64,000 bases of DNA, from NCBI GenBank assembly GCA_040384705.1, contig JAZKIU010000001.1, positions 478,053 through 542,052 on the forward strand. The letters are read 5' to 3'. Of the stretch, positions 1 to 9,045 are shown piece after piece. Position numbers and translations under genes: made by a program. Source of the stretch: Patescibacteria group bacterium. GTDB taxonomy: Bacteria; Patescibacteriota; Minisyncoccia; Phycocordibacterales; Phycocordibacteraceae. Below the pieces are notes generated by a model that ran no database searches, was not told the DNA's origin, and was given only the letters and a program-made list of their open reading frames with translations. Within the stretch, counting starts at the first letter, position 1. Each line of letters opens with the position of its first letter.

Positions 1-376
1 CGACGAGGTCGAGCTCGCCAGACAGCACTGCTTTGGATAGCTCCTTCAGCGTCTTCACCTTGGCGTTCGAGAGACCCGCTTTGCGCATGGACGTAGCACG
101 AATGCGCTTAACTGCTTCCGGCGTCACTTCGCCTCCGCACGCCTTCTCGAGACGGTCCCAAATACTATCAGCCGCCTTCGTCGAGAGCTGCTGGCCGGTG
201 ACCGCTCCTGCGAGCGATGCGAAGAGCTTCTGGCTCGAGTACCGCTTCTGGGCAGTGGAGCGCGGCTTGATGTCCTGGTAGTGGGGGAGCGCTGCCTTAT
301 ACAGGACCGGGTCCGCCTTCTTCAGGTGACGCATGGCTTCATCATGCACGTTCTTGGCCGTCGGTTTACCCGTCAT
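1..376 (-). CDS. HhH-GPD DNA glycosylase (AlkA / 3-methyladenine glycosylase-like), 5' part only; gene runs off the window start
   Basis: Reverse-strand translation starts MTGKPTAKNVHDEAMRHLKKADPVLYKAALPHYQDIKPRSTAQKRY..VTGQQLSTKAADSIWDRLE..VTPEAV..SMRKAGLSNAKVKTLKELSKAVLSGELDL. This is the classic HhH-GPD pattern. Absent from the ORF track because it has no stop inside the window. Confidence 0.7.
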   Translation of the reverse strand, partial: MTGKPTAKNVHDEAMRHLKKADPVLYKAALPHYQDIKPRSTAQKRYSSQKLFASLAGAVTGQQLSTKAADSIWDRLEKACGGEVTPEAVKRIRATSMRKAGLSNAKVKTLKELSKAVLSGELDLV

Positions 377-393
377 CTGGCTAGTATATACTT

Positions 394-617
394 ATGGGCA
401 CATGCTCCGCACCATCATACTTATCGTGGTCATCGTGCTCGTACTATCGTTCTTCGGCATTTCCATACAGAGCGTCATTAACTCGCCCACGGGGCAGGAG
501 AACTTCGGGTTCCTCTGGGATCTCATCAAGGACGGATGGGAGGTCATAAAAGAAGGCTGGAACTCGTTCCTCGCTTTCTTCGGCGAGATCTTCAAGCCGC
601 TTTCGTTCGGCCAATAA
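394..617 (+). CDS. Small membrane protein (about 71-74 aa), unknown function
   Basis: Internal start of ORF 333..617. MLRTIILIVVIVLVLSFFGISIQ is hydrophobic, followed by WDLIKDGWEVIKEGW. A TATATA-like -10 lies just upstream. Confidence 0.4.
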
Positions 618-621
618 CCCT

Positions 622-879
622 ATGGACGCTCCGAAGCCCAAGCAGATAACCATTGCGCTCCCTCCGGACGCGCGTGCGATGTTCTCGAACGCGACGCAGG
701 TCATGGTGTCGGACGATTCGGTCATCATCCAATTCGCGTACGTGCGGCCGAACACGAAGGTGGGGCAGCTCATCTCGGAGATATCGCTCTCGCCCAAGCA
801 CGCGATAGAGTTCAGCCGCGCGCTCGACTCCACCATCAAGAAGCACTTCACCAGGCATCTCGAGGAAATCAATCCCTAG
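622..879 (+). CDS. Small protein, probably DUF3467-like
   Basis: 85 aa with protein-like composition. The pattern ..FSNATQVMVSDDSVIIQFAY....LSPKHAIEFSRALDSTIKKH resembles DUF3467 as recalled from memory. Confidence 0.45.
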   Translation: MDAPKPKQITIALPPDARAMFSNATQVMVSDDSVIIQFAYVRPNTKVGQLISEISLSPKHAIEFSRALDSTIKKHFTRHLEEINP

Positions 880-994
880 GCCGTTTCTTTACTGTTCCGA
901 AGGCCCGTGGCCTATTCACTTAAATCTCATCATTGATGAGCTATACCGTAGAGGTTAGTAGCTTAGTACTAACGTTTAACCTTCTACGATTGAT

Positions 995-1231
995 ATGAAA
1001 ACGCTACTCCTCGGTGCGCTCGCGGCTGTAGCCGCTGTCGCTGTGCCAGGCATCTCCTTCGCCGCAACGTACGCCTATGTGAACAATACCGGTGAAGTCA
1101 TGACTGTCGAAGCGGCAACGCCGAACGCAGCCATCACGACCGCACCGGGCATTGATGAACACAGCGGTGTGATACTGGTGGATGATTCAGCAGACACGCA
1201 GCTCGTGGGCGACGACGTTCCCGGCGTGTAA
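995..1231 (+). CDS. Small secreted protein (signal peptide), unknown function
   Basis: MKTLLLGALAAVAAVAVPGISFA is a signal peptide. A perfect hairpin follows at about 1255-1284. Confidence 0.5.
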   Translation: MKTLLLGALAAVAAVAVPGISFAATYAYVNNTGEVMTVEAATPNAAITTAPGIDEHSGVILVDDSADTQLVGDDVPGV

Positions 1232-1253
1232 TTTCCGCTGCGCAGAAACGTCT

Positions 1254-1285
1254 GAACTCCCGAAGCGCTTGCTTCGGGAGTTCGC
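1254..1285 (+). terminator. Hairpin AACTCCCGAAGC-GCTT-GCTTCGGGAGTT downstream of the small secreted gene
   Basis: Perfect 12-bp inverted repeat seen in the sequence. No strong U-tract follows. Confidence 0.4.
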
Positions 1286-1368
1286 TCGTTCATGAAGAGG
1301 AGCGTACTGCTGAGCTCGCTCATAATTCTCCCTGTCGGTATAGTTGTACTACATAACTCCATACACCC

Positions 1369-2181
1369 ATGTCATATTCACGCATCACCACGTTCTCCCT
1401 CGCGCTCATTCTCGCGTTCTCCTTCCTCCCGTTCGCGGCATATGCCGCGGATGTTGAAGCTAGTATCGACGAAAGCAGCCTGACTACGTCCTCGAAGAAA
1501 CCAACCATATCGGGCGAGACCAACGCGACTACGTCGGTATACGTCGTCGTGCGCTCTGAGGCCGGCAAGATTGTGTATAAGAAGATCGCGAAGGTTAAGG
1601 ACGGCGAATGGAAAGCGAAGATGACCCGCACCCTCAAGAGAGGGGACTACGAGGTGAGCGTCTATGAATCGAAGAAGTCCAAGGACGCTCTGGACGAGGA
1701 AACGCTCACACTCACCACCAAGTCCAAGGCAAAGACGGCAGGGAAGTCATCAGCCTCCCTTTCGGTCACTTCGGTGCCGCTTCTGTTCGGCGGGAACGCT
1801 AAGCTCGGCAGCTCCATCCCGGTCGCGTACGTGAAGCTCGTGAACACGACGAACGCAACAACCTCGATAGAAGGATTCACTCTCCGCCAGAACGGGTCGG
1901 CCGCGACCGATATCATAACGACGTTCGCAACGAACGACGATAAGGGCGGGTCGCGCACGGTTGTACCGAGCGTATTCAAGAAAGGGGAGGTATACGTACC
2001 GCTTGCAGCCGAACTCGCCCCAGGCCAGATGCGCATCTTCACACTTAAGGCCGCATTGAACGCGGCTTCGTACACTGCACTCGGCAAGACGCTTGTGCTC
2101 GACGTGGTATCAGTCGACACGAGTGCGAAGCTCGTTGGAACGCTCCCGCTCCGTGGTACCGTTTGGACATTGGCGTTCTAA
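1369..2181 (+). CDS. Secreted protein (signal peptide), unknown function
   Basis: N-terminus MSYSRITTFSLALILAFSFLPFAAYAA. Rich in Thr, Ser and Lys with beta-rich composition. Confidence 0.6.
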   Translation: MSYSRITTFSLALILAFSFLPFAAYAADVEASIDESSLTTSSKKPTISGETNATTSVYVVVRSEAGKIVYKKIAKVKDGEWKAKMTRTLKRGDYEVSVYESKKSKDALDEETLTLTTKSKAKTAGKSSASLSVTSVPLLFGGNAKLGSSIPVAYVKLVNTTNATTSIEGFTLRQNGSAATDIITTFATNDDKGGSRTVVPSVFKKGEVYVPLAAELAPGQMRIFTLKAALNAASYTALGKTLVLDVVSVDTSAKLVGTLPLRGTVWTLAF

Positions 2182-2204
2182 CCTAGCGCCCGCACCTACT
2201 ACCT

Positions 2205-2522
2205 ATGATCTCACTCCTTTTCGGTTTCGTTATCGGCATCGCGTTCGTCATCTTTGCGCTGCAGAATACCGCCATAGTGGCGCTCTCCTTCCTTGGGTGG
2301 AAGTTCGAGAGCCCGCTCGCGCTCGTTGCGCTCCTGGTCTTTGCGGCCGGTATCGCCCTCTCAGCTGCCGTTTCCATCCCGAGCGTCATACGCGACAGCT
2401 TGCGTATCCGACGGCTCGAGAAGGAGAATGGCGTATTGCGGAACGAGCGTGATGAGCTCGCTACGGCTCTCGAGAACTACAATCCGGTGGTGGTAACGAG
2501 CCCTCACCTCGCTCAGCGCTAA
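2205..2522 (+). CDS. LapA-domain (DUF1049) small membrane protein
   Basis: Two transmembrane segments followed by a coiled-coil tail RRLEKENGVLRNERDELATALE, the typical LapA_dom architecture. Confidence 0.55.
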   Translation: MISLLFGFVIGIAFVIFALQNTAIVALSFLGWKFESPLALVALLVFAAGIALSAAVSIPSVIRDSLRIRRLEKENGVLRNERDELATALENYNPVVVTSPHLAQR

Positions 2523-2527
2523 TCCCC

Positions 2528-3199
2528 ATGTACCTTCCTGCACACATTGGCGTTATTGCGCTCGCGCTCATTCTTGTCGCTCCGGTACCGACCCATGCCG
2601 CAACGGTGTACGACAATGATCGGTCCTATTTCTCCCGGGAAGAGTACAGGAGCTCCTCCAGCCGACTCTCTTCAAGCCTACGTAACAAGATAAAGAAGCT
2701 CGATGACGATGCCGTAGAGAACCTTCCTATCCCAATCGCACTTGGCGTTGCGCTTCGCAACCTGAGCAAGAACTTCGGTGACGATAGGGATGGCGGAGCA
2801 CGCTCGCACGAAGGCCTCGATATCATGGCGCCTCGTGGTGCCTATATCGCGTCCCCGACCGAAGCGGTAGTCACGCGCACCGGCAAGGGCTCGAGCGCAG
2901 GAACCTATGTCTATACGATGGGCCCAGGAGGCGAGACGTTTGCGTACATGCACTTGGACGGCATTGCAGACGGCATTAAGTCAGGGAGCGAGCTCAAGGC
3001 CGGTGATCTTATCGGATACGTGGGCGACACAGGTAACGCCAAAGGAGGTGCGACGCACCTCCACTTCGAGATACGCGAAGGCCGCAAGGCGACCGATCCG
3101 TTCCCACGGCTTACGAGAGAATTCACTTCAGCGGAACTCATACGCACACTGACAGATGTCGTGGAGGAGCTTCAGGCAGACCTTAAGAGAAAGGACTGA
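2528..3199 (+). CDS. M23 family metallopeptidase (LytM-like)
   Basis: HEGLDI ... GYVGDTGNAKGGATHLHFEIR motifs, with an N-terminal signal/transmembrane segment. Confidence 0.8.
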   Translation: MYLPAHIGVIALALILVAPVPTHAATVYDNDRSYFSREEYRSSSSRLSSSLRNKIKKLDDDAVENLPIPIALGVALRNLSKNFGDDRDGGARSHEGLDIMAPRGAYIASPTEAVVTRTGKGSSAGTYVYTMGPGGETFAYMHLDGIADGIKSGSELKAGDLIGYVGDTGNAKGGATHLHFEIREGRKATDPFPRLTREFTSAELIRTLTDVVEELQADLKRKD

Positions 3200-3248
3200 T
3201 CAGCTTACGAAGAACAGAGGAGACTACATTCTCTTCCGAAGAGATAGA

Positions 3249-4043
3249 TCAAGCGGTTGATTCTTTCTTCAGGAAACTCGTAAGTACCGGCAGTAGGACT
3301 TTAGTATTCACCATGTGGCTTTGGCCGGGAAGCACGACGAACTCCGAGCCTGGAATGGCCTGTGCTAATTCTTTCCCTACAGCATGAATGCGTTCAGGAT
3401 TCTTCCCTCCAACAGCGATTTGTACCGGCAAGGTGACTTGGGAGGCTCGTTCGATGGGCGGCATATCATCGGTCAAGGCGATATCGTACGCAAGGGTCGG
3501 CGCGAGAGCTACCATAGTCGACCAGCCGGGCATTATCCGAAACAGGAAGACGAATGCTTTCGGAATACCGATGCCTTTCAGGAAACCGGTCATGGCTTCC
3601 GCATTCTTCCCGGCTTCAAGCAGTGAATGCACCTTGCGGCTTAGCTTCTCGTATTCAGCCTTCTCCTCCTCATCGTGCACATAAGGAGGATCGTACATGA
3701 CGACCTTTTGTACTTTGTCAGGCAGACGCAGAGCAGCTTCGAGCGCAAGCACGGCCCCAGAAGAGTGACCGTATAGATAGGCTGTGCCGCCAGCAGCATC
3801 GATCATTGCTTGAATGTCCTCAACCTCACGTTCCACTGCCCACGGGAGCGTATCGGTGCTATCTCCGCGTCCACGACGGTCGTAGTTGTAGACGGTAAAT
3901 TCCTTGGCCAATATCTTGGCGTCATCGACGATCGGCATGAACGAGCGGAAGCAGCTCGCCCCCGTTATGTAGATGAGAGCGGGGCCGCTACCGTACACAT
4001 CGTAGGCTATGTTTGTGCCGTCTTTCGATTGAGTTGTTTTCAT
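3249..4043 (-). CDS. Alpha/beta hydrolase fold protein
   Basis: GHSSGA nucleophile-elbow motif; 264 aa. Confidence 0.75.
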   Translation of the reverse strand: MKTTQSKDGTNIAYDVYGSGPALIYITGASCFRSFMPIVDDAKILAKEFTVYNYDRRGRGDSTDTLPWAVEREVEDIQAMIDAAGGTAYLYGHSSGAVLALEAALRLPDKVQKVVMYDPPYVHDEEEKAEYEKLSRKVHSLLEAGKNAEAMTGFLKGIGIPKAFVFLFRIMPGWSTMVALAPTLAYDIALTDDMPPIERASQVTLPVQIAVGGKNPERIHAVGKELAQAIPGSEFVVLPGQSHMVNTKVLLPVLTSFLKKESTA

Positions 4044-4169
4044 GCTGCGTGTTCTTACTTATTACCCACCGTAGTTGCGTGTAGTCTAACAGGGAAGTCC
4101 CCCACCTGAAATATCCATACAGTGGGCCTTTTTTAATCTCGGCTCGGCCATCTCGGCTTCCCTAGCCTA

Positions 4170-4650
4170 GGAGGAAATAGGGAAGTGGCACTTCCCCGAC
4201 ATTTGAGTGAAATCTTTATATGCTCCAGGACGCCTGAATATGGCGGCTTTGGGGAAGTGGGCGTAGGAATTTATATATGCGGGACCTTATGCACCTCTCT
4301 AGAAGGGATTGGATGCTAGGGAAGTGTGCACTCAAAGAATCCAGACCGCCTGAGCAGCGCCTAGGCTATGGCTACATTACTTAGTCGCAAAAGATATATT
4401 GTGCGACATGCAGAAATACTGAATCCAAGGCTCATCAAGCCCTCCACTAAAATGCCCGCTCTACTCCCCTCCTATGCACCTGCCCTGCACCGACATCGAG
4501 TCAGCCGCCTCGTACATCTACCCGGAGATATAAATAAAAACTATTTGTACCACTTCCCCGAAAACATCCGAAAGGGCGGCGGGGGAGCGATTTAGGAAAA
4601 TAGGAAAGGGACCCCCGAAGAGGTCCCCTCACTTCCCTATTCCCTGCCCC
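4170..4650. repeat. Intergenic repeat cluster: GGGAAGTG / CACTTCCC eight-mer, six copies (three per orientation), including a perfect palindrome GGGAAGTG-GC-CACTTCCC
   Basis: Copies start near 4180, 4252 and 4319 (forward) and near 4190, 4551 and 4630 (reverse). The flanking 12-mer AATAGGGAAGTG appears forward at about 4176 and reverse at about 4630-4641. A GGGACC-N8-GGTCCC hairpin lies at about 4608-4627. Confidence 0.6.
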
Positions 4651-4804
4651 ATGCGGTACCGCTCGGGACAGGCTTCTTCTTTTTTCCGAGATCAGGAGAG
4701 GAGTCGGCTTTCGCTCTCTCGCCCTTCCTGCCATCGCCATGATGATAGTAATGCGCGATGGCCGTTCTCGGATCGTCCCGTCGAAGTACATTCGGATTGC
4801 ACAT
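4637..4804 (-). CDS. Possible 55-aa lysine/arginine-rich small protein
   Basis: Internal ATG of ORF 4637..5089, preceded by the SD-like GGAAGGAGAGAGTC. Sequence MCNPNVLRRDDPRTAIAHYYHHGDGRKGERAK..KKKKPVPSG. Confidence 0.25.
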   Translation of the reverse strand: MCNPNVLRRDDPRTAIAHYYHHGDGRKGERAKADSSPDLGKKKKPVPSGTAWGRE

Positions 4805-4839
4805 GACTCTCTCCTTCCATGTGCGTGCTACAAGCTGTT

Positions 4840-5055
4840 CTAGAAGAGCCTGGCGACCTCCGACGCCGCGTAATAGATGCTGGTCGGAATGACGATGAGA
4901 CCGGCACCGAGGAACGCAGTGAACCGCAGACGCGATATGTACATGTGGCAGTCGGGCTCCTCCTCCTGAAGGATTTCCTTCGCGATAGCGGAGCGCTCGG
5001 GGGCGGTAGATTTCGCGATAGTCATGGCCAGAGTCTCCCTTTCTAGAAAGGCCAT
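4840..5055 (-). CDS. Small protein with a C-terminal transmembrane segment, unknown function
   Basis: 71 aa; FLGAGLIVIPTSIYYAASEVARLF is hydrophobic. Upstream TTGACG-N17-TTAACT and a TATAAT overlapping the ATG. Confidence 0.35.
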   Translation of the reverse strand: MAFLERETLAMTIAKSTAPERSAIAKEILQEEEPDCHMYISRLRFTAFLGAGLIVIPTSIYYAASEVARLF

Positions 5056-5104
5056 TATAAGCTCTGCTCGAAGTTAAGCACCGCCCCACCCTCGCGTCAA
5101 AGAG

Positions 5105-5905
5105 CTAGCACTTCACATTATGTGTGATGTAATCGAAGGCTTCGTCGACCGAATCCACGAGATGGAAGAGCTTGAGGTCGGCCTCATCGATGGCACGGTA
5201 CTTGCCGTAGAGCTCGTTCGTGAAGAGATCGATGATGGGTGTCCAGAAGGCCTTGCCGTAGAGGACGATAGGTACCGGCTTTATCTTCTTCGTCTGTATG
5301 AGCGTGATAATTTCCGTGAACTCATCGAGCGTACCGAAGCCTCCTGGGAAATAGATGTAGACCTCAGACGCGAATGCGAGCATCACCTTGCGCACGAAGA
5401 AGTGGTCGAACATCATCGAGTCGGTGAGGAACTTATTCAGCGACTGGTTGTCCTCAAGACGGATGTTGAGGCCGATGGAGGCGCCTCCCGCTTCATGCGC
5501 TCCTCGATTAGCCGCCTGCATGACGCCTGAGCTGCCGCCTGTGATGACAGCGAAGCCGGCCTTGGCGAGCTTAGCCGCAAGATCGGTCGCATCCTGGTAT
5601 ACCTTCGAGTCGAAGGAGGCGCGTGCCGAGCCGAAGAAGGTTGCGGTGAGGCCATAGCGCTTGAGGAGCTCGAAGCCGTCCACGAACTCGGCCATTATCT
5701 TGAATATGCGCCAGCTCTCTATCTGGCGAGGCTTGCAAACGAGCGGTGCCGGATTCGCAGGCACCTCGTCCTTCCCGTGCTGTATGGCCTCGGTAAGAAC
5801 GGCCGCCATCGCGCGGTCTCTCTCCTTATCGCGGATATTACTATCCCCTGCCCCGATGGCTTCGGGCGGCACTACTAACTGTTCGCTCATCTGGTTCTCA
5901 TTCAT
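5105..5905 (-). CDS. LOG family protein (cytokinin riboside 5'-monophosphate phosphoribohydrolase-like; TIGR00730)
   Basis: ITGGSSGVMQAANRGAHEAGGASIGLNI and PGGFGTLDE motifs. Confidence 0.8.
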   Translation of the reverse strand: MNENQMSEQLVVPPEAIGAGDSNIRDKERDRAMAAVLTEAIQHGKDEVPANPAPLVCKPRQIESWRIFKIMAEFVDGFELLKRYGLTATFFGSARASFDSKVYQDATDLAAKLAKAGFAVITGGSSGVMQAANRGAHEAGGASIGLNIRLEDNQSLNKFLTDSMMFDHFFVRKVMLAFASEVYIYFPGGFGTLDEFTEIITLIQTKKIKPVPIVLYGKAFWTPIIDLFTNELYGKYRAIDEADLKLFHLVDSVDEAFDYITHNVKC

Positions 5906-6494
5906 GGTGCCAAGGTATGTCGTACTCGCTGAATTCCGGGAATATCTTTCGATTATACGCTATGCGTGCGATGACCTCCGCATGGCATAACGCTCCGGTG
6001 AGCCCGTTGTGCGGGCGCGGCTCTTCGGGGATGCCGACATAGCGGAGCGCGAAATCGAGATTGATAGCCGAGTGATGATTGAGGAGCGGTGGCGTTAGTC
6101 CTTTCTGGACCATGTGCAGCCACGTGAGCGTATGCACATCGAGCGTACGCTTGCCGAACGGGCATTCTATCCCCGCGCGCTTGCAGGCTTGCTGCACGAA
6201 CTCCAGGTCGAATGATACGTTCTGCGCGGCAAGCGTCCTATCCTCGGGCCTATCGGTCGCCCATGCGACAAAAGAAGCGATGAGATCCGCTTCGCCCTTC
6301 TTGCTCCCGTCCGTTATCTCTTCCCTCGTGAACCCATTTATGGAAAGCGCCTCGTCCGTGACATGCGCTCCTTCCCAGGCGGCGCATTCCTCGTAGAACT
6401 GGTTGGTGGGGTCATGTAAGTCCACCGCGCCTAGAGAAAGGATGGAGCAGCGTTCCGGGGAAAGCCCGCTCGCTTCAACATCGAGTACTATCAT
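5898..6494 (-). CDS. 3'-5' exonuclease, DnaQ-like (DEDD family)
   Basis: MIVLDVEASGL..., H-x4-D near the C-terminus; length matches an epsilon-like exonuclease domain. Overlaps the LOG gene by 8 nt, suggesting an operon. Confidence 0.7.
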   Translation of the reverse strand: MIVLDVEASGLSPERCSILSLGAVDLHDPTNQFYEECAAWEGAHVTDEALSINGFTREEITDGSKKGEADLIASFVAWATDRPEDRTLAAQNVSFDLEFVQQACKRAGIECPFGKRTLDVHTLTWLHMVQKGLTPPLLNHHSAINLDFALRYVGIPEEPRPHNGLTGALCHAEVIARIAYNRKIFPEFSEYDIPWHHE

Positions 6495-6503
6495 GCCTCC
6501 ATT

Positions 6504-6914
6504 CTACAGGCCCGGGCAATTCGACGCAGGGCCGTACCCGGCCGCTGCTGCCTGTTCCTTCGTATCGAACCACACCTTGTTCTCCTCCTTGATACGCTTG
6601 GCCCCGCTACAGGTTGGAAGATGGTACTTCGAGCCGCTCTTGGACGCGACGTATTTCCCCGCTGCTTGAGCCGCTAGTTCGGTAGCCGCGGCTGCAGGAG
6701 CACTCGCTACGGCTGCAGGAAGCCCTTCCGACTTCGATAGCTGCTCTATCCAGACCTTATCTCCCCCGCTCCCTTGCTCCATCTCCTTGCCGGCGAGTAC
6801 GCCGAGCGCGAACGCGGCCGTGCACGAGAGCACGAGTATCAGGATGACCAGCATATCCGCCGGAATACGGCGAACCCCTTCCTTGCCCGCCTCTTGTAGG
6901 TCTGGTATACTCAT
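6504..6914 (-). CDS. Membrane-anchored protein with an Ala-rich linker and a C-terminal domain resembling the Ada metal-binding domain
   Basis: N-terminal transmembrane segment, then KYHLPTCSGAKRIKEENKVWFDTKEQAAAAGYGPASNCP. Ada-N has the pattern YHxPxC....N..F....EA..AGYRPC. Only 2 Cys residues are present. Confidence 0.45.
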   Translation of the reverse strand: MSIPDLQEAGKEGVRRIPADMLVILILVLSCTAAFALGVLAGKEMEQGSGGDKVWIEQLSKSEGLPAAVASAPAAAATELAAQAAGKYVASKSGSKYHLPTCSGAKRIKEENKVWFDTKEQAAAAGYGPASNCPGL

Positions 6915-6936
6915 CGCTACCTAAAGAATAGCATTT

Positions 6937-7218
6937 ATGGCAAGTACAAAGGCCGGAGGATCAGCAAAGAACCTAAATACATCGAACCCGAAATACCTCG
7001 GGGTTAAGCTCGCGGATGGCCAGGCAGCGCGCCCTGGAATGGTCATCGTACGCCAGCGCGGCACCAAGATTGAGGCCGGAAAGAACGTGAAGGTCGGCAA
7101 GGACCACACCCTCTACTCCATGATTACGGGTAAGGTCGCCTTCCGTGACCGCCGCAAGACCAACTTCGATGGCCGCGTGGTCAAGAAGAAGGTCGTCGAC
7201 GTCCTCGTCGCTGCCTAA
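6937..7218 (+). CDS. rpmA: 50S ribosomal protein L27
   Basis: GGSAKN..PKYLGVK..DGQ.A..G.VIVRQRGTK...G.NV..GKDHTLY...G.V.F. Confidence 0.93.
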   Translation: MASTKAGGSAKNLNTSNPKYLGVKLADGQAARPGMVIVRQRGTKIEAGKNVKVGKDHTLYSMITGKVAFRDRRKTNFDGRVVKKKVVDVLVAA

Positions 7219-7237
7219 CTAGGCCTCGAACGCTCCT

Positions 7238-7283
7238 AAATAGCCCGGCTTCAGAACGAAGCCGGGCTATTGCTTTTATATAG
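7238..7283 (+). terminator. Rho-independent terminator after rpmA
   Basis: AATAGCCCGGCTTC-AGAAC-GAAGCCGGGCTATT followed by GCTTTTAT. Confidence 0.75.
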
Positions 7284-7346
7284 AAAAGTGATATGGTTGT
7301 GCTTAGAGCGAGGAATATCCTTGCTAAAGAAACTTCCAGCCCTAGA

Positions 7347-8481
7347 GAGGTGTGTCATGCCCTTCATTCGTCAGTTCCTGACCCTGATGGCCTTCGTCAT
7401 CAGCTTCGCGCTTATCGCCTCCCCGGCGTCCGCCGAGGGGATGAACGGCGTGATCAACGCCTGCAAGACCCAGAACATGGAACGGCTCTCCGTGGACGAG
7501 GAAGGTGCGCGTCGGCTTTCTGCCGGCGTCACCATCACGTACAACGGGAAGAACGTTCCCATGGGACGCAACATCTGGAGCTCGTGCGAGGAAATCGTCC
7601 AGTCCAGCGCGCCCATCGTTCGCTCGGATGCTCCGATCGCGCGTCCGCAACCCGCGGCTAAGGTCGATCCTGCTCCGGTCGTCGCCCAGAAGGCGCCGCC
7701 CGCCGTCAAGACCGACCCGGCCGTGAAGGTGCCCTCCGTGGCCGTCACCGAACCGGTGGTGCCCACGGAGACCATCAATGCCTACGCCCGTGCGGCCCAC
7801 AGGGGCCAGCACACCGGCGGGACCGGTCTCATCCGTCACGCTGACGAGATGGTCCGCAACACGAACCGACCCAGCTACTACGACCCGCCGACAGCGCCCG
7901 CATCCGTGTTCATGGAGAGCCTGAAGGGCTCTGTCGCGAGCACGACGGCCTGGCTGTCGAGCCGGAACGACGATGCGCATCGCATCAAGGCTTGGATCGC
8001 GGAGATCCTGCAGCCGTTGCTGACCGACACCAAGCGCGCGGACAAGACCGCGAGCTGGATGACGAAACAGCAAGACGGCGTGCAGAACGCCGCAGCATGG
8101 GTGACTAGCGCCCTGCCGTCCCTACCCGACATCAAAGGCTACGCCAAGCGCGCGCTCGCTTGGACGATTAGCCCGCTCTGGCACCTCGCCATCGTCGTCG
8201 TGGGCGCCATCATCGCCGCGATCGGCATCAGGTTCATCCTGGTGGAACGCGACTACCGGCTGCACCCCGAGAAGTACGAGGAGCTCCCGGAACCCGCGAT
8301 TGACCCTGATACGCTTTGGTCCGCTGTCGAGCTCGAGCTCGAGGAGACCGGCGCCATAAGGCCCGCGGAAGCGCAGCTCGAGGAGACGGAAGAAGTGGAG
8401 GGGCCGGCCATCTTGGCCGCGACCAACTGCAACGACCCCGACTCCCACCCCATCTCCCGTAGGGAACGGATGCTGGGCTGA
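7347..8481 (+). CDS. Secreted/membrane protein: signal peptide, proline-rich linker, C-terminal transmembrane segment and acidic tail; unknown function; high GC3
   Basis: Internal start MPFIRQFLTLMAFVISFALIASPASAEG of ORF 7270..8481. Contains PAAKVDPAPVVAQKAPPAVKTDPAVKVP and a C-terminal LWHLAIVVVGAIIAAIGIRFILV. Codon third positions are almost all G or C. Overlapping shadow ORFs appear in all frames. Confidence 0.55.
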
Positions 8482-8551
8482 AACGCCTCTCATCCTCAGT
8501 CCTTTCTACAGAAAGCACCTTAAGCAAGGCGACGCCCCACCCGGGTCGTCG

Positions 8552-8581
8552 CCTTCTTCATATATATGCGAAAAGCCGCGC
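8552..8581. terminator. Bidirectional terminator hairpin between convergent genes
   Basis: AAAAGCCGCGCATCGCTGCACGGCTTTT. Confidence 0.55.
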
Positions 8582-8619
8582 ATCGCTGCACGGCTTTTCT
8601 TATATGCCCGACGACCGTC

Positions 8620-9045
8620 TTACTCAGCGACGATCTCTACGGAGAACTTACCGAAATTGGCGCCATAGGCGACTGGGACATCGAAGGTGCCAAGTTCCTT
8701 GATGGACTTCTCGAGCTTGATGACCTCTTCGGGAAGCTGCGCCGCCTCCGCGAGCTCTTTCGCATCAACACCGTCGTATAGATGGCCCTGCTCGTTCGCC
8801 TTCTTGATGATGGTGACCTTCTCCTCGGCAAGGACGGCAAGACGGTCCTCCACGAGCTTCACATCGAGCTCCTTGCGGTCAACGACCTGCTGCACACGGA
8901 GTCCTGCCTGCTTGAGGGCGCCCGCGGTCGCGGGAACCGCCATCTTACGAGGGATAAGGAAGTTAAGGGCGTGGCCGGCCGATACCTCGACTTCGGTGTG
9001 CGCACGGCCCATATCCTTCACGTCTTTCAGTAGTACGACTTTCAT
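8620..9045 (-). CDS. rplI: 50S ribosomal protein L9
   Basis: MKVVLLKDVKDMGRAHTEVEVSAGHALNFLIPRKMA. Confidence 0.9.
   Translation of the reverse strand: MKVVLLKDVKDMGRAHTEVEVSAGHALNFLIPRKMAVPATAGALKQAGLRVQQVVDRKELDVKLVEDRLAVLAEEKVTIIKKANEQGHLYDGVDAKELAEAAQLPEEVIKLEKSIKELGTFDVPVAYGANFGKFSVEIVAE

Follow-up and report, generated by a model that had tools for sequence, protein, structure and literature searches.

The DNA analysed here, called the window below, is a stretch of 64,000 nt from a Patescibacteria genome (candidate phyla radiation, CPR), with a GC content of 58.6%. The Logan contig L001 is 100% identical to it over window positions 1-9045 and adds 5.6 kb, which brings the part of this genome that was covered to 69.6 kb. 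An exact-protein look-up had no entry for the LOG protein, and for the hydrolase it led back to this genome only. On the minus strand of the window, an exonuclease gene is followed by the gene for a LOG protein (5905-5105), a small open reading frame (ORF) of 61 or 71 aa, a second one of 55 aa and a terminator hairpin (4630-4605); an ORF-poor island of about 1 kb separates LOG from an alpha/beta hydrolase gene. Inside this island lies a 28-bp sequence that we propose to be the dif site of the chromosome, surrounded by copies of a polar 8-mer, GGGAAGTG. The first-pass annotation of the island had singled out the 8-mer, in both orientations, and inverted 12-mers, and had suggested a regulator array, a miniature mobile element or a small RNA (sRNA) locus; it did not mention the 28-bp sequence.

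The putative dif site is an imperfect palindrome, in which two 11-bp arms flank a 6-bp AT-rich centre (Table 1). It came to light when the island was set against what lies downstream of LOG in relatives; judged by the LOG protein, the nearest genomes are metagenome-assembled genomes (MAGs) of Patescibacteria/Parcubacteria, L002, L003 and L004, with 77%, 62% and 63% identity respectively. A 22-nt block of the site, GTCGCACAATATATCTTTTGCG (window 4385-4406, minus strand), is nearly unchanged in L003-L008. A pattern scan with GCACAATATAYCTTTTRCG matched 25 contigs of the viral collection IMG/VR, and a scan with the core CGCACAATATAYCTTTTRCG matched at least 120 metagenome contigs; the core is also present in the genome relatives L003-L007. 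Among the matches listed there is one core match per contig, including contigs of 345-830 kb, and in the 69.6 kb of the genome studied here the site is unique, with no near-copy at up to three mismatches. In L105, an additional core match (GCACAATAT) was noticed at 3758, on the opposite strand and with unrelated flanks; it is probably due to chance. Over about 150 Patescibacteria loci, from hosts of 30-59% GC, the core of 20-24 bp is nearly invariant, in part by construction of the scan pattern (see below). Derived from 146 loci, the consensus reads GTCGCACAATATAYCTTTTRCGAC(at), and the GT..AC that flanks the core, outside the bases fixed by the scan pattern, is at least 85% conserved.

For pooled analyses, 148 non-redundant loci were oriented on the site, with flanks of up to 8 kb. 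Within 5 kb on either side, the neighbours of the site across the lineage are LOG, an RNase T-like exonuclease or an S41 peptidase on one side, and a coiled-coil M23 peptidase, FtsQ, MurG, GltX, FtsW and MraY on the other, and most genes on both sides are transcribed toward the site. This conserved order implies that the end of a division and cell-wall cluster abuts the putative terminus. The pooled GC skew ranged from +0.01 to +0.12 to the left of the site and from -0.05 to -0.13 to its right, a change that is a terminus-type switch.

In Escherichia coli, the translocase FtsK is oriented toward dif by the FtsK-orienting polar sequences (KOPS, GGGNAGGG), and in Bacillus subtilis SpoIIIE is oriented in the same direction by the SpoIIIE recognition sequences (SRS, GAGAAGGG). 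A family of polar motifs was likewise found to point to the CPR site from both sides. In the pooled loci, AGGG[AG]AG (AGGGRAG) was present 265 times in the forward and 17 times in the reverse orientation to the left of the site, and 18 and 175 times, respectively, to the right. This polarity persists over the full 8 kb of flank, and its switch lies within 100 bp of the site. It is independent of gene orientation, as genes on the opposite strand had the motif in ratios of 61:4 on the left side and 13:2 on the right side. AGGGAAG and AGGGGAG are the commonest 7-mers of their own base composition, and their skew toward the site (0.96 and 0.92-0.93 respectively) is at or next to the top, compared with a median of 0.65-0.75 for composition-matched 7-mers; a generic purine skew is ruled out because both words exceed words of the same composition in frequency as well as in skew. 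Among the most skewed 8-mers lineage-wide are AGGGAAGT (78:7 toward the site), AAGGGAAG (76:2), GCAGGGGA (82:8) and GGGCAGGG (59:2).

The same behaviour was observed along the right arm of the window (59.6 kb), in which the ratios were 25:2 for AGGGRAG, 23:1 for GGGAAGNG, 9:0 for GGGAAGGG and 6:0 for GGGAAGTG, and in which AGGGAA is the most skewed 6-mer. Twelve of the 13 motif matches that lie within plus-strand genes sit on the minus strand, and half of the matches are on the template strand of plus-strand genes. The switch of orientation at the site of the window was significant, with the island included (Fisher p = 2e-6) or left out (1e-4). GGGAAGTG belongs to a lineage-wide polar family together with AGGGRAG, GGGAAGKG, GGGAAGGG and GGGCAGGG. 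Since its polar behaviour is the same in the window arm and in related loci, we regard it as a local form of a KOPS-like family that extends across CPR.

Around the site of the window these motifs form a dense array (Table 1). GGGAAGTG is present in 10 copies in the window, compared with 1.7 +/- 1.2 expected, and none of 100 shuffles reached 10, so that the enrichment suspected from the island alone was confirmed by the count. The island itself contains six copies between 4180 and 4637, three in each orientation, exactly as first described. The 'perfect palindrome GGGAAGTGGCCACTTCCC' that had been reported with them is not in the sequence, which reads GGGAAGTG-G-CACTTCCC at 4180-4196; this away-plus-toward palindrome has a counterpart in L128. 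The inverted 12-mer AATAGGGAAGTG noted at the two ends of the array (4176-4187 and 4630-4641) is present, and the match extends to 16 nt (15/16, 94%) with its arms 442 nt apart. Within 300 bp of the site the window has 8 inward copies of the motif family, more than any other of 112 loci; next come L003, L004 and L128 with six each. The mean over the 112 loci was 0.97, and the distal density would predict 0.32. Enrichment close to the site is a general feature of modest size, and its dense form is found in the clade of the window. The closest relatives have near-site motif copies in common with the window, and the block TTCGGGGAAGTGGT, which includes one of them, lies equally far from the site in L002, L004 and the window.

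Two other kinds of sequence accompany the array. The heptamer CCGAGAT/ATCTCGG is also present within 300 bp of the sites in L003, L004, L128, L210 and L139; in that interval it is convergent (13:4 and 4:0), and farther out it has no polarity. It was considered as a second genome-wide polar motif and rejected, as its enrichment is merely local. AT-rich boxes lie on both sides of the site, and an 8-mer together with its box makes a larger interrupted inverted repeat (4248-4283 versus 4521-4562); the same composite was seen in L004.

Table 1. Position of the putative dif site, of the surrounding motifs and of the neighbouring genes and ORFs in the window
Feature	Position	Strand	Remarks
Putative dif site	4382-4409	-	ATGTCGCACAA-TATATC-TTTTGCGACTA; plus strand TAGTCGCAAAA GATATA TTGTGCGACAT
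Left arm of site, ATGTCGCACAA	4399-4409	-	XerC-type by analogy
Right arm of site, TTTTGCGACTA	4382-4392	-	XerD-type by analogy
KOPS-like GGGAAGTC, one mismatch to GGGAAGTG	4092-4099	+	Toward site; AGGGAAG at 4091-4097
KOPS-like GGGAAGTG	4180-4187	+	Toward site; left half of 17-nt palindrome
GGGAAGTG	4189-4196	-	Away from site; hairpin-capable palindrome with 4180-4187
KOPS-like GGGAAGTG	4252-4259	+	Toward site
KOPS-like GGGAAGTG	4319-4326	+	Toward site
KOPS-like AGGGGAG	4464-4470	-	Toward site
KOPS-like GGGAAGTG	4551-4558	-	Toward site; within block TTCGGGGAAGTGGT
KOPS-like GGGAAGTG	4630-4637	-	Toward site; also base of extended terminator stem
GGGCAGGG, canonical E. coli KOPS	4642-4649	-	Toward site
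ATCTCGG heptamers	4136-4142 and 4150-4156; third copy at 4686-4692	+; third copy inverted	Convergent
AT-rich boxes (TTTATATATGC-like)	4211-4223, 4268-4280, 4521-4535		8-35 nt inside GGGAAGTG copies, both sides of site
Alpha/beta hydrolase gene	3249-4043		Adjoins putative dif site
Small ORF, 71 aa (61 aa from ATG at 5025)	4840-5055	-	C-terminal hydrophobic segment
Small ORF, 55 aa	4637-4803	-	3' end made of overlapping polar motifs
Intrinsic terminator hairpin, GAGGGGACC-TCTTCG-GGGGTCCC + T-rich tail	4605-4630	-	Terminator scoring, folding

The matching contigs of the viral collection are prophages of the filamentous (inovirus-like) type; their low-GC hosts resemble CPR, to judge by the shared site and by MurG and FtsQ as neighbours. 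Inoviruses have previously been reported in CPR hosts (PMC6813254). Prophages devoid of integrase lie at the site in seven contigs (L091, L096, L098, L102, L104, L105 and L106); that of L104 (2612-8510) encodes Zot, a G2P-type Rep and a DUF2726 protein. Each prophage is flanked by one intact site and by one hybrid, which keeps the left arm and the centre (GTCGCACAATATATC) and then diverges. These junctions are the footprint of elements that exploit the Xer recombinases of their host. The pseudo-dif sites of Xer-exploiting phages have a degenerate XerD arm (PMC3025954). By analogy, the left arm of the CPR site would be the XerC-type arm and the right arm the XerD-type arm, because the prophage hybrids keep the left arm and the centre and have the right arm replaced. 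In L002, a hybrid-type site was seen alone at 7689-7716 (ACTTCGCACAATAT, then divergent TGTGTTGTACG), and it is followed, where the window has the hydrolase gene, by a ParB-like gene (8113-8937, ParB_N and HTH_ParB domains); an element may have integrated at dif in L002, the intact site lying past the end of the contig.

Five loci (L152, L125, L132, L178 and L205) have a full-length XerC/D-like gene at a distance of 0.3-1.4 kb from the site. In L152, the gene (1469-2704) is 290 bp from the site and its product matches the Pfam families Phage_integrase and SAM_1; with the NCBIfam models for XerC and XerD the protein scores about 240 bits in each case, and equally as XerA, under every curated cut-off. 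In L152, L125, L132 and L178, the xer gene lies beyond the right arm and is transcribed away from the site, which recalls the xerS and xerH arrangement. As for the translocase, the cultured CPR strain TM7x has an annotated ftsK gene (PMC10768705).

We consider it probable that the island is a chromosome dimer-resolution locus, composed of dif and of KOPS-like motifs that converge on it, and our confidence is higher for the dif site than for the recognition of the motifs by FtsK. The architecture of the site, its conservation and its presence as a single copy per contig examined, the inversion at the site of both motif polarity and pooled GC skew, the prophage junctions and the proximity of xer in some relatives are all observed; from these sequences we infer that Xer acts on the site, and by analogy with KOPS and SRS the motifs would be read by FtsK. 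After replication, one or several Xer-family tyrosine recombinases would bind the two 11-bp arms of the palindrome at 4382-4409, acting as dif, and would exchange strands across the 6-bp centre, thereby resolving a dimeric chromosome into monomers. GGGAAGTG and its kin (AGGGRAG, GGGAAGGG and GGGCAGGG), placed in each arm on the strand that reads toward dif, would be the KOPS equivalent of this lineage; an FtsK-type translocase loading on them would be guided toward dif in either arm. In the clade of the window, the unusually dense cluster of inward copies, which lies no more than about 300 bp from dif, would then serve as a last and redundant loading and orienting pad. The scarcity of ORFs in the island would also fit this scheme, as two convergent gene sets meet there and as the LOG-side flank of dif would be a variable segment in which Xer-exploiting elements insert.

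Several observations weigh against this interpretation. The GC skew of the window alone does not change sign at the site, and the 10 kb on the hydrolase side are not skewed as expected; the lack of a local flip may result from an insertion or inversion of the hydrolase gene. Neither xer nor ftsK was detected in the 64-kb window, by Pfam searches of ten large ORFs or by tblastn searches for which E. coli XerD and FtsK C-terminal sequences were the queries. Outside the island, GGGAAGTG is only about twofold above chance in the window (4 copies versus about 2), and two of the near-site motif copies, at 4157 and 4189, point outward. The scan pattern fixed 18 bases and limited two others to Y or R, so that the conservation of the core is partly a product of the way in which it was retrieved; the number of matches, the rule of one match per contig and the flanks are free of this effect. 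Finally, the outer motif copies are alike over 15 of 16 nt, and with the AT-rich boxes and CCGAGAT heptamers that accompany them they hint at more than a bare 8-mer signal.

The heptamers, the boxes, the outward-plus-inward palindrome and the 15/16-nt outer copies are indeed not explained by dif plus KOPS alone, and because of them one other reading of the array stays alive. The dif call would then be right, and the local array would consist of sites for another terminus protein, either a polar fork trap of the Tus-Ter or RTP-Ter kind, or accessory sequences of Xer recombination as at cer and psi. We think this unlikely. The cluster is 25-fold above the distal motif density and its dense form is clade-specific, the copies stand at similar distances (about 150-250 bp) in the window, L002, L004 and L005, the second motif CCGAGAT is convergent and yet local, and the composite of 8-mer and AT-rich box recurs to either side of the site, in L004 as in the window; all of this, like the similarity of the outer copies, would suit a terminus protein. 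However, the same 7-8-mers are polar over at least 8 kb in the 148 loci and over 60 kb in the window, which is the pattern of KOPS, and no candidate terminator protein was identified. Known Ter sites, moreover, are far longer than 8 bp, and known accessory sequences lie on a single side of the core. A more ambitious form of the dimer-resolution model takes up the same features: the approximately 550-bp, two-fold symmetric 'dif island', with at least four inward KOPS-like copies, CCGAGAT heptamers and AT-rich boxes per side, could be a dedicated machine beyond KOPS steering, for instance a platform for loading or stalling FtsK or a polar fork trap with a terminus protein, and the near-invariance of the 24-bp core across the superphylum could come from an unusual, possibly single-recombinase, Xer system; the clade concerned would be high-GC, Parcubacteria-like CPR. 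We regard this proposal as speculative and rather unlikely as a whole.

The palindrome and repeats might instead form a structured RNA (an sRNA or a hairpin) or an operator array regulating the hydrolase or LOG genes, and an sRNA locus had been among the first suggestions. The outer positions of the palindrome do co-vary in part (GTGCGCA..TGCGCAC in L005, CTTCGCA..TGCGAAG in L003), and TATA-like boxes adjoin the motif copies. But the complementarity of the arms is broken in many loci (e.g. L115, L116, L128 and L139), what is conserved is a DNA palindrome, and no Rfam match at the gathering score was obtained in the window and 16 related loci. Rfam at the gathering score together with ARAGORN returned two unrelated tRNAs and otherwise no known RNA, and Rfam at E <= 10 on 3900-5200 returned a single chance-level match, to RsmY (E = 3.3). 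No sigma-70-like promoter was detected, the neighbouring genes vary among relatives while the site is retained, polarity along a whole arm is foreign to operators, and prophages recombine at the site at the level of DNA. An RNA or operator is therefore very improbable. The clustered binding-site array first proposed comes close, but a transcription regulator is unsupported: the motif is polar along the chromosome arm. Two specific RNA or hairpin structures were tried and rejected. For an RNA of about 400 nt closed by GGGGAAGTGG/CCACTTCCC, resembling transfer-messenger RNA or RNase P RNA, no T-loop or P4-like element was found, Rfam was silent and the motif is polar at the genome scale. An RNA or single-stranded DNA hairpin whose loop is conserved (a rolling-circle origin, for example) was dropped because the arm complementarity is often broken and because the prophage junctions indicate that site-specific recombination of double-stranded DNA takes place where the central region ends.

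The least credible explanation is that the 4172-4645 segment is a degenerate miniature inverted-repeat transposable element (MITE), or another miniature mobile element, whose ends would be 16-nt terminal inverted repeats. The 94% identity of the inverted repeat is what would commend it. The segment is nevertheless single-copy in a self-BLAST of the 69.6 kb made up by the window and L001, the phage collection gave no match to it, and no flanking direct duplication of a target site was seen on reading the sequence. The supposed terminal repeats are themselves copies of the genome-wide polar motif, and in relatives with 62-77% LOG identity, where an empty site might have been expected, homologous motif copies are present at the same position.

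A chromosome dimer-resolution locus, as we propose it, has several points of resemblance with the XerCD/dif systems of model bacteria. The dif sites of E. coli and B. subtilis are GGTGCGCATAA-TGTATA-TTATGTTAAAT and ACTTCCTAGAA-TATATA-TTATGTAAACT, respectively (PMC3025954). Like them, the CPR site is 28 bp long with an 11-6-11 arrangement and an AT-rich centre, is present in one copy per chromosome-sized contig, lies, in the pooled loci, where the strand-compositional polarity inverts, and is hijacked by filamentous phages devoid of integrase, which leave an intact and a hybrid copy. Counted by eye, it is identical to E. coli dif at 16 of 28 positions, and a high-GC CPR variant is identical to B. 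subtilis dif at up to 20 of 28. It differs in that its arms are far more symmetric (ATGTCGCACAA compared with the reverse complement ATGTCGYAAAA), in that the classical inner ATAA/TTAT is replaced by CACAA/TTTT, and in that its core of 20-24 bp is almost invariant over a superphylum whose members range from 30 to 59% GC. The near-palindromic site and the adjoining xer gene of some genomes (L152) recall instead the XerH/difH, XerS/difSL and archaeal XerA/dif systems; unlike these single-recombinase systems, most CPR loci, the window included, are without an adjacent xer gene.

The CPR motifs resemble KOPS and SRS in being G-rich 7-8-mers that are more than 90% strand-skewed, with a polarity that flips at dif and does not follow the orientation of genes, and GGGAAGGG and GGGCAGGG fit the E. 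coli consensus GGGNAGGG literally. The preferred forms in CPR differ, AGGGRAG and GGGAAGTG taking the place of the known words, and recognition by FtsK gamma is proposed by analogy. A further difference is the pile-up of motifs beside dif in the clade of the window, with its 8 inward copies within 300 bp on either side; we know of no report of a KOPS pile-up next to dif in model bacteria. The prophages of related hosts, which carry Zot and G2P genes and no integrase, lie on the left-arm side of the site and leave a hybrid copy with a degenerate right arm, resemble the integrative mobile elements exploiting Xer (IMEX) among the inoviruses, such as CTX-phi and VGJ-phi. The window differs in having no prophage: between LOG and the site there is only an unconserved segment with small ORFs.

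On its LOG side, the site has a variable flank. In L004, the segment between LOG and dif (3115-3611) was seen to contain a DUF4258/DUF2283 pair, which is likely to be a toxin-antitoxin module, and a 92-aa ORF, and in L002 two other small tail-anchored ORFs stand where the window has its two mini-ORFs. Both mini-ORFs of the first-pass annotation do exist, and both were called independently, as 61 aa and 55 aa, by the gene caller on the identical Logan contig, but only the longer of them resembles a gene. The 61/71-aa ORF, with a third-position GC content (GC3) of 0.75 and a codon log-odds of 0.16-0.25, the top of the six frames, is probably a real lineage-specific gene to judge by its codon statistics; the 55-aa ORF, with a GC3 of 0.58, a codon log-odds of -0.40 and no prominent frame, is probably non-coding. 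Neither had a Pfam match, nor a homolog by tblastn against 226 loci. The tblastn matches of a 75-aa ORF on the plus strand lie across the conserved 28-bp site, and most likely represent no more than its translation.

The GGGACC/GGTCCC hairpin pointed out from the start was found at 4605-4630; it folds at -30 kcal/mol, scores as an intrinsic terminator on the minus strand and ends the transcription unit of exonuclease, LOG and small ORFs. The same terminator module is present twice downstream of LOG in L002. Written as ATAGGGAAG-[A/T]G-GGGGNCC-loop-GGGGTCCC-TTTCCTATT, it was seen at 4598-4645 in the window and at 7138-7185 and 7450-7495 in L002, where it lies 3' of each of two unrelated small ORFs; in the window its place is 3' of the small-ORF region. 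The module is a duplicated or reused cassette with an embedded polar motif. On the other side of the site, the hydrolase gene carries two copies of the polar motif in the 'wrong' orientation, at 3402 and 3834. It is not at this position in relatives, which usually have the M23 peptidase, FtsQ and MurG there instead, and may have been inserted or inverted recently.

The literature searched did not contain the site sequence, and among the CPR papers listed no mention of KOPS or of chromosome dimers was found. A broad survey of dif sites covered 16 phyla, CPR not among them (PMC3025954). The type of system proposed here, XerCD/dif with FtsK and KOPS, is a known one; what would be new is its CPR version, with a symmetric and invariant core, the AGGGRAG and GGGAAGTG forms of the polar motif and the dense convergent array.

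Patescibacteria account for a large share of bacterial diversity and are almost entirely uncultured, and to our knowledge their chromosome biology is essentially unstudied. If our interpretation is correct, the 24-bp dif consensus and AGGGRAG together would provide a landmark of the replication terminus that can be read from sequence alone, and that could aid in closing, orienting and quality-checking CPR MAGs. The site also marks the attachment point of CPR filamentous prophages, and it offers a concrete target for work in the few CPR strains that are genetically tractable. More generally, these observations suggest that KOPS-like steering of FtsK reaches into the deep-branching CPR lineage.

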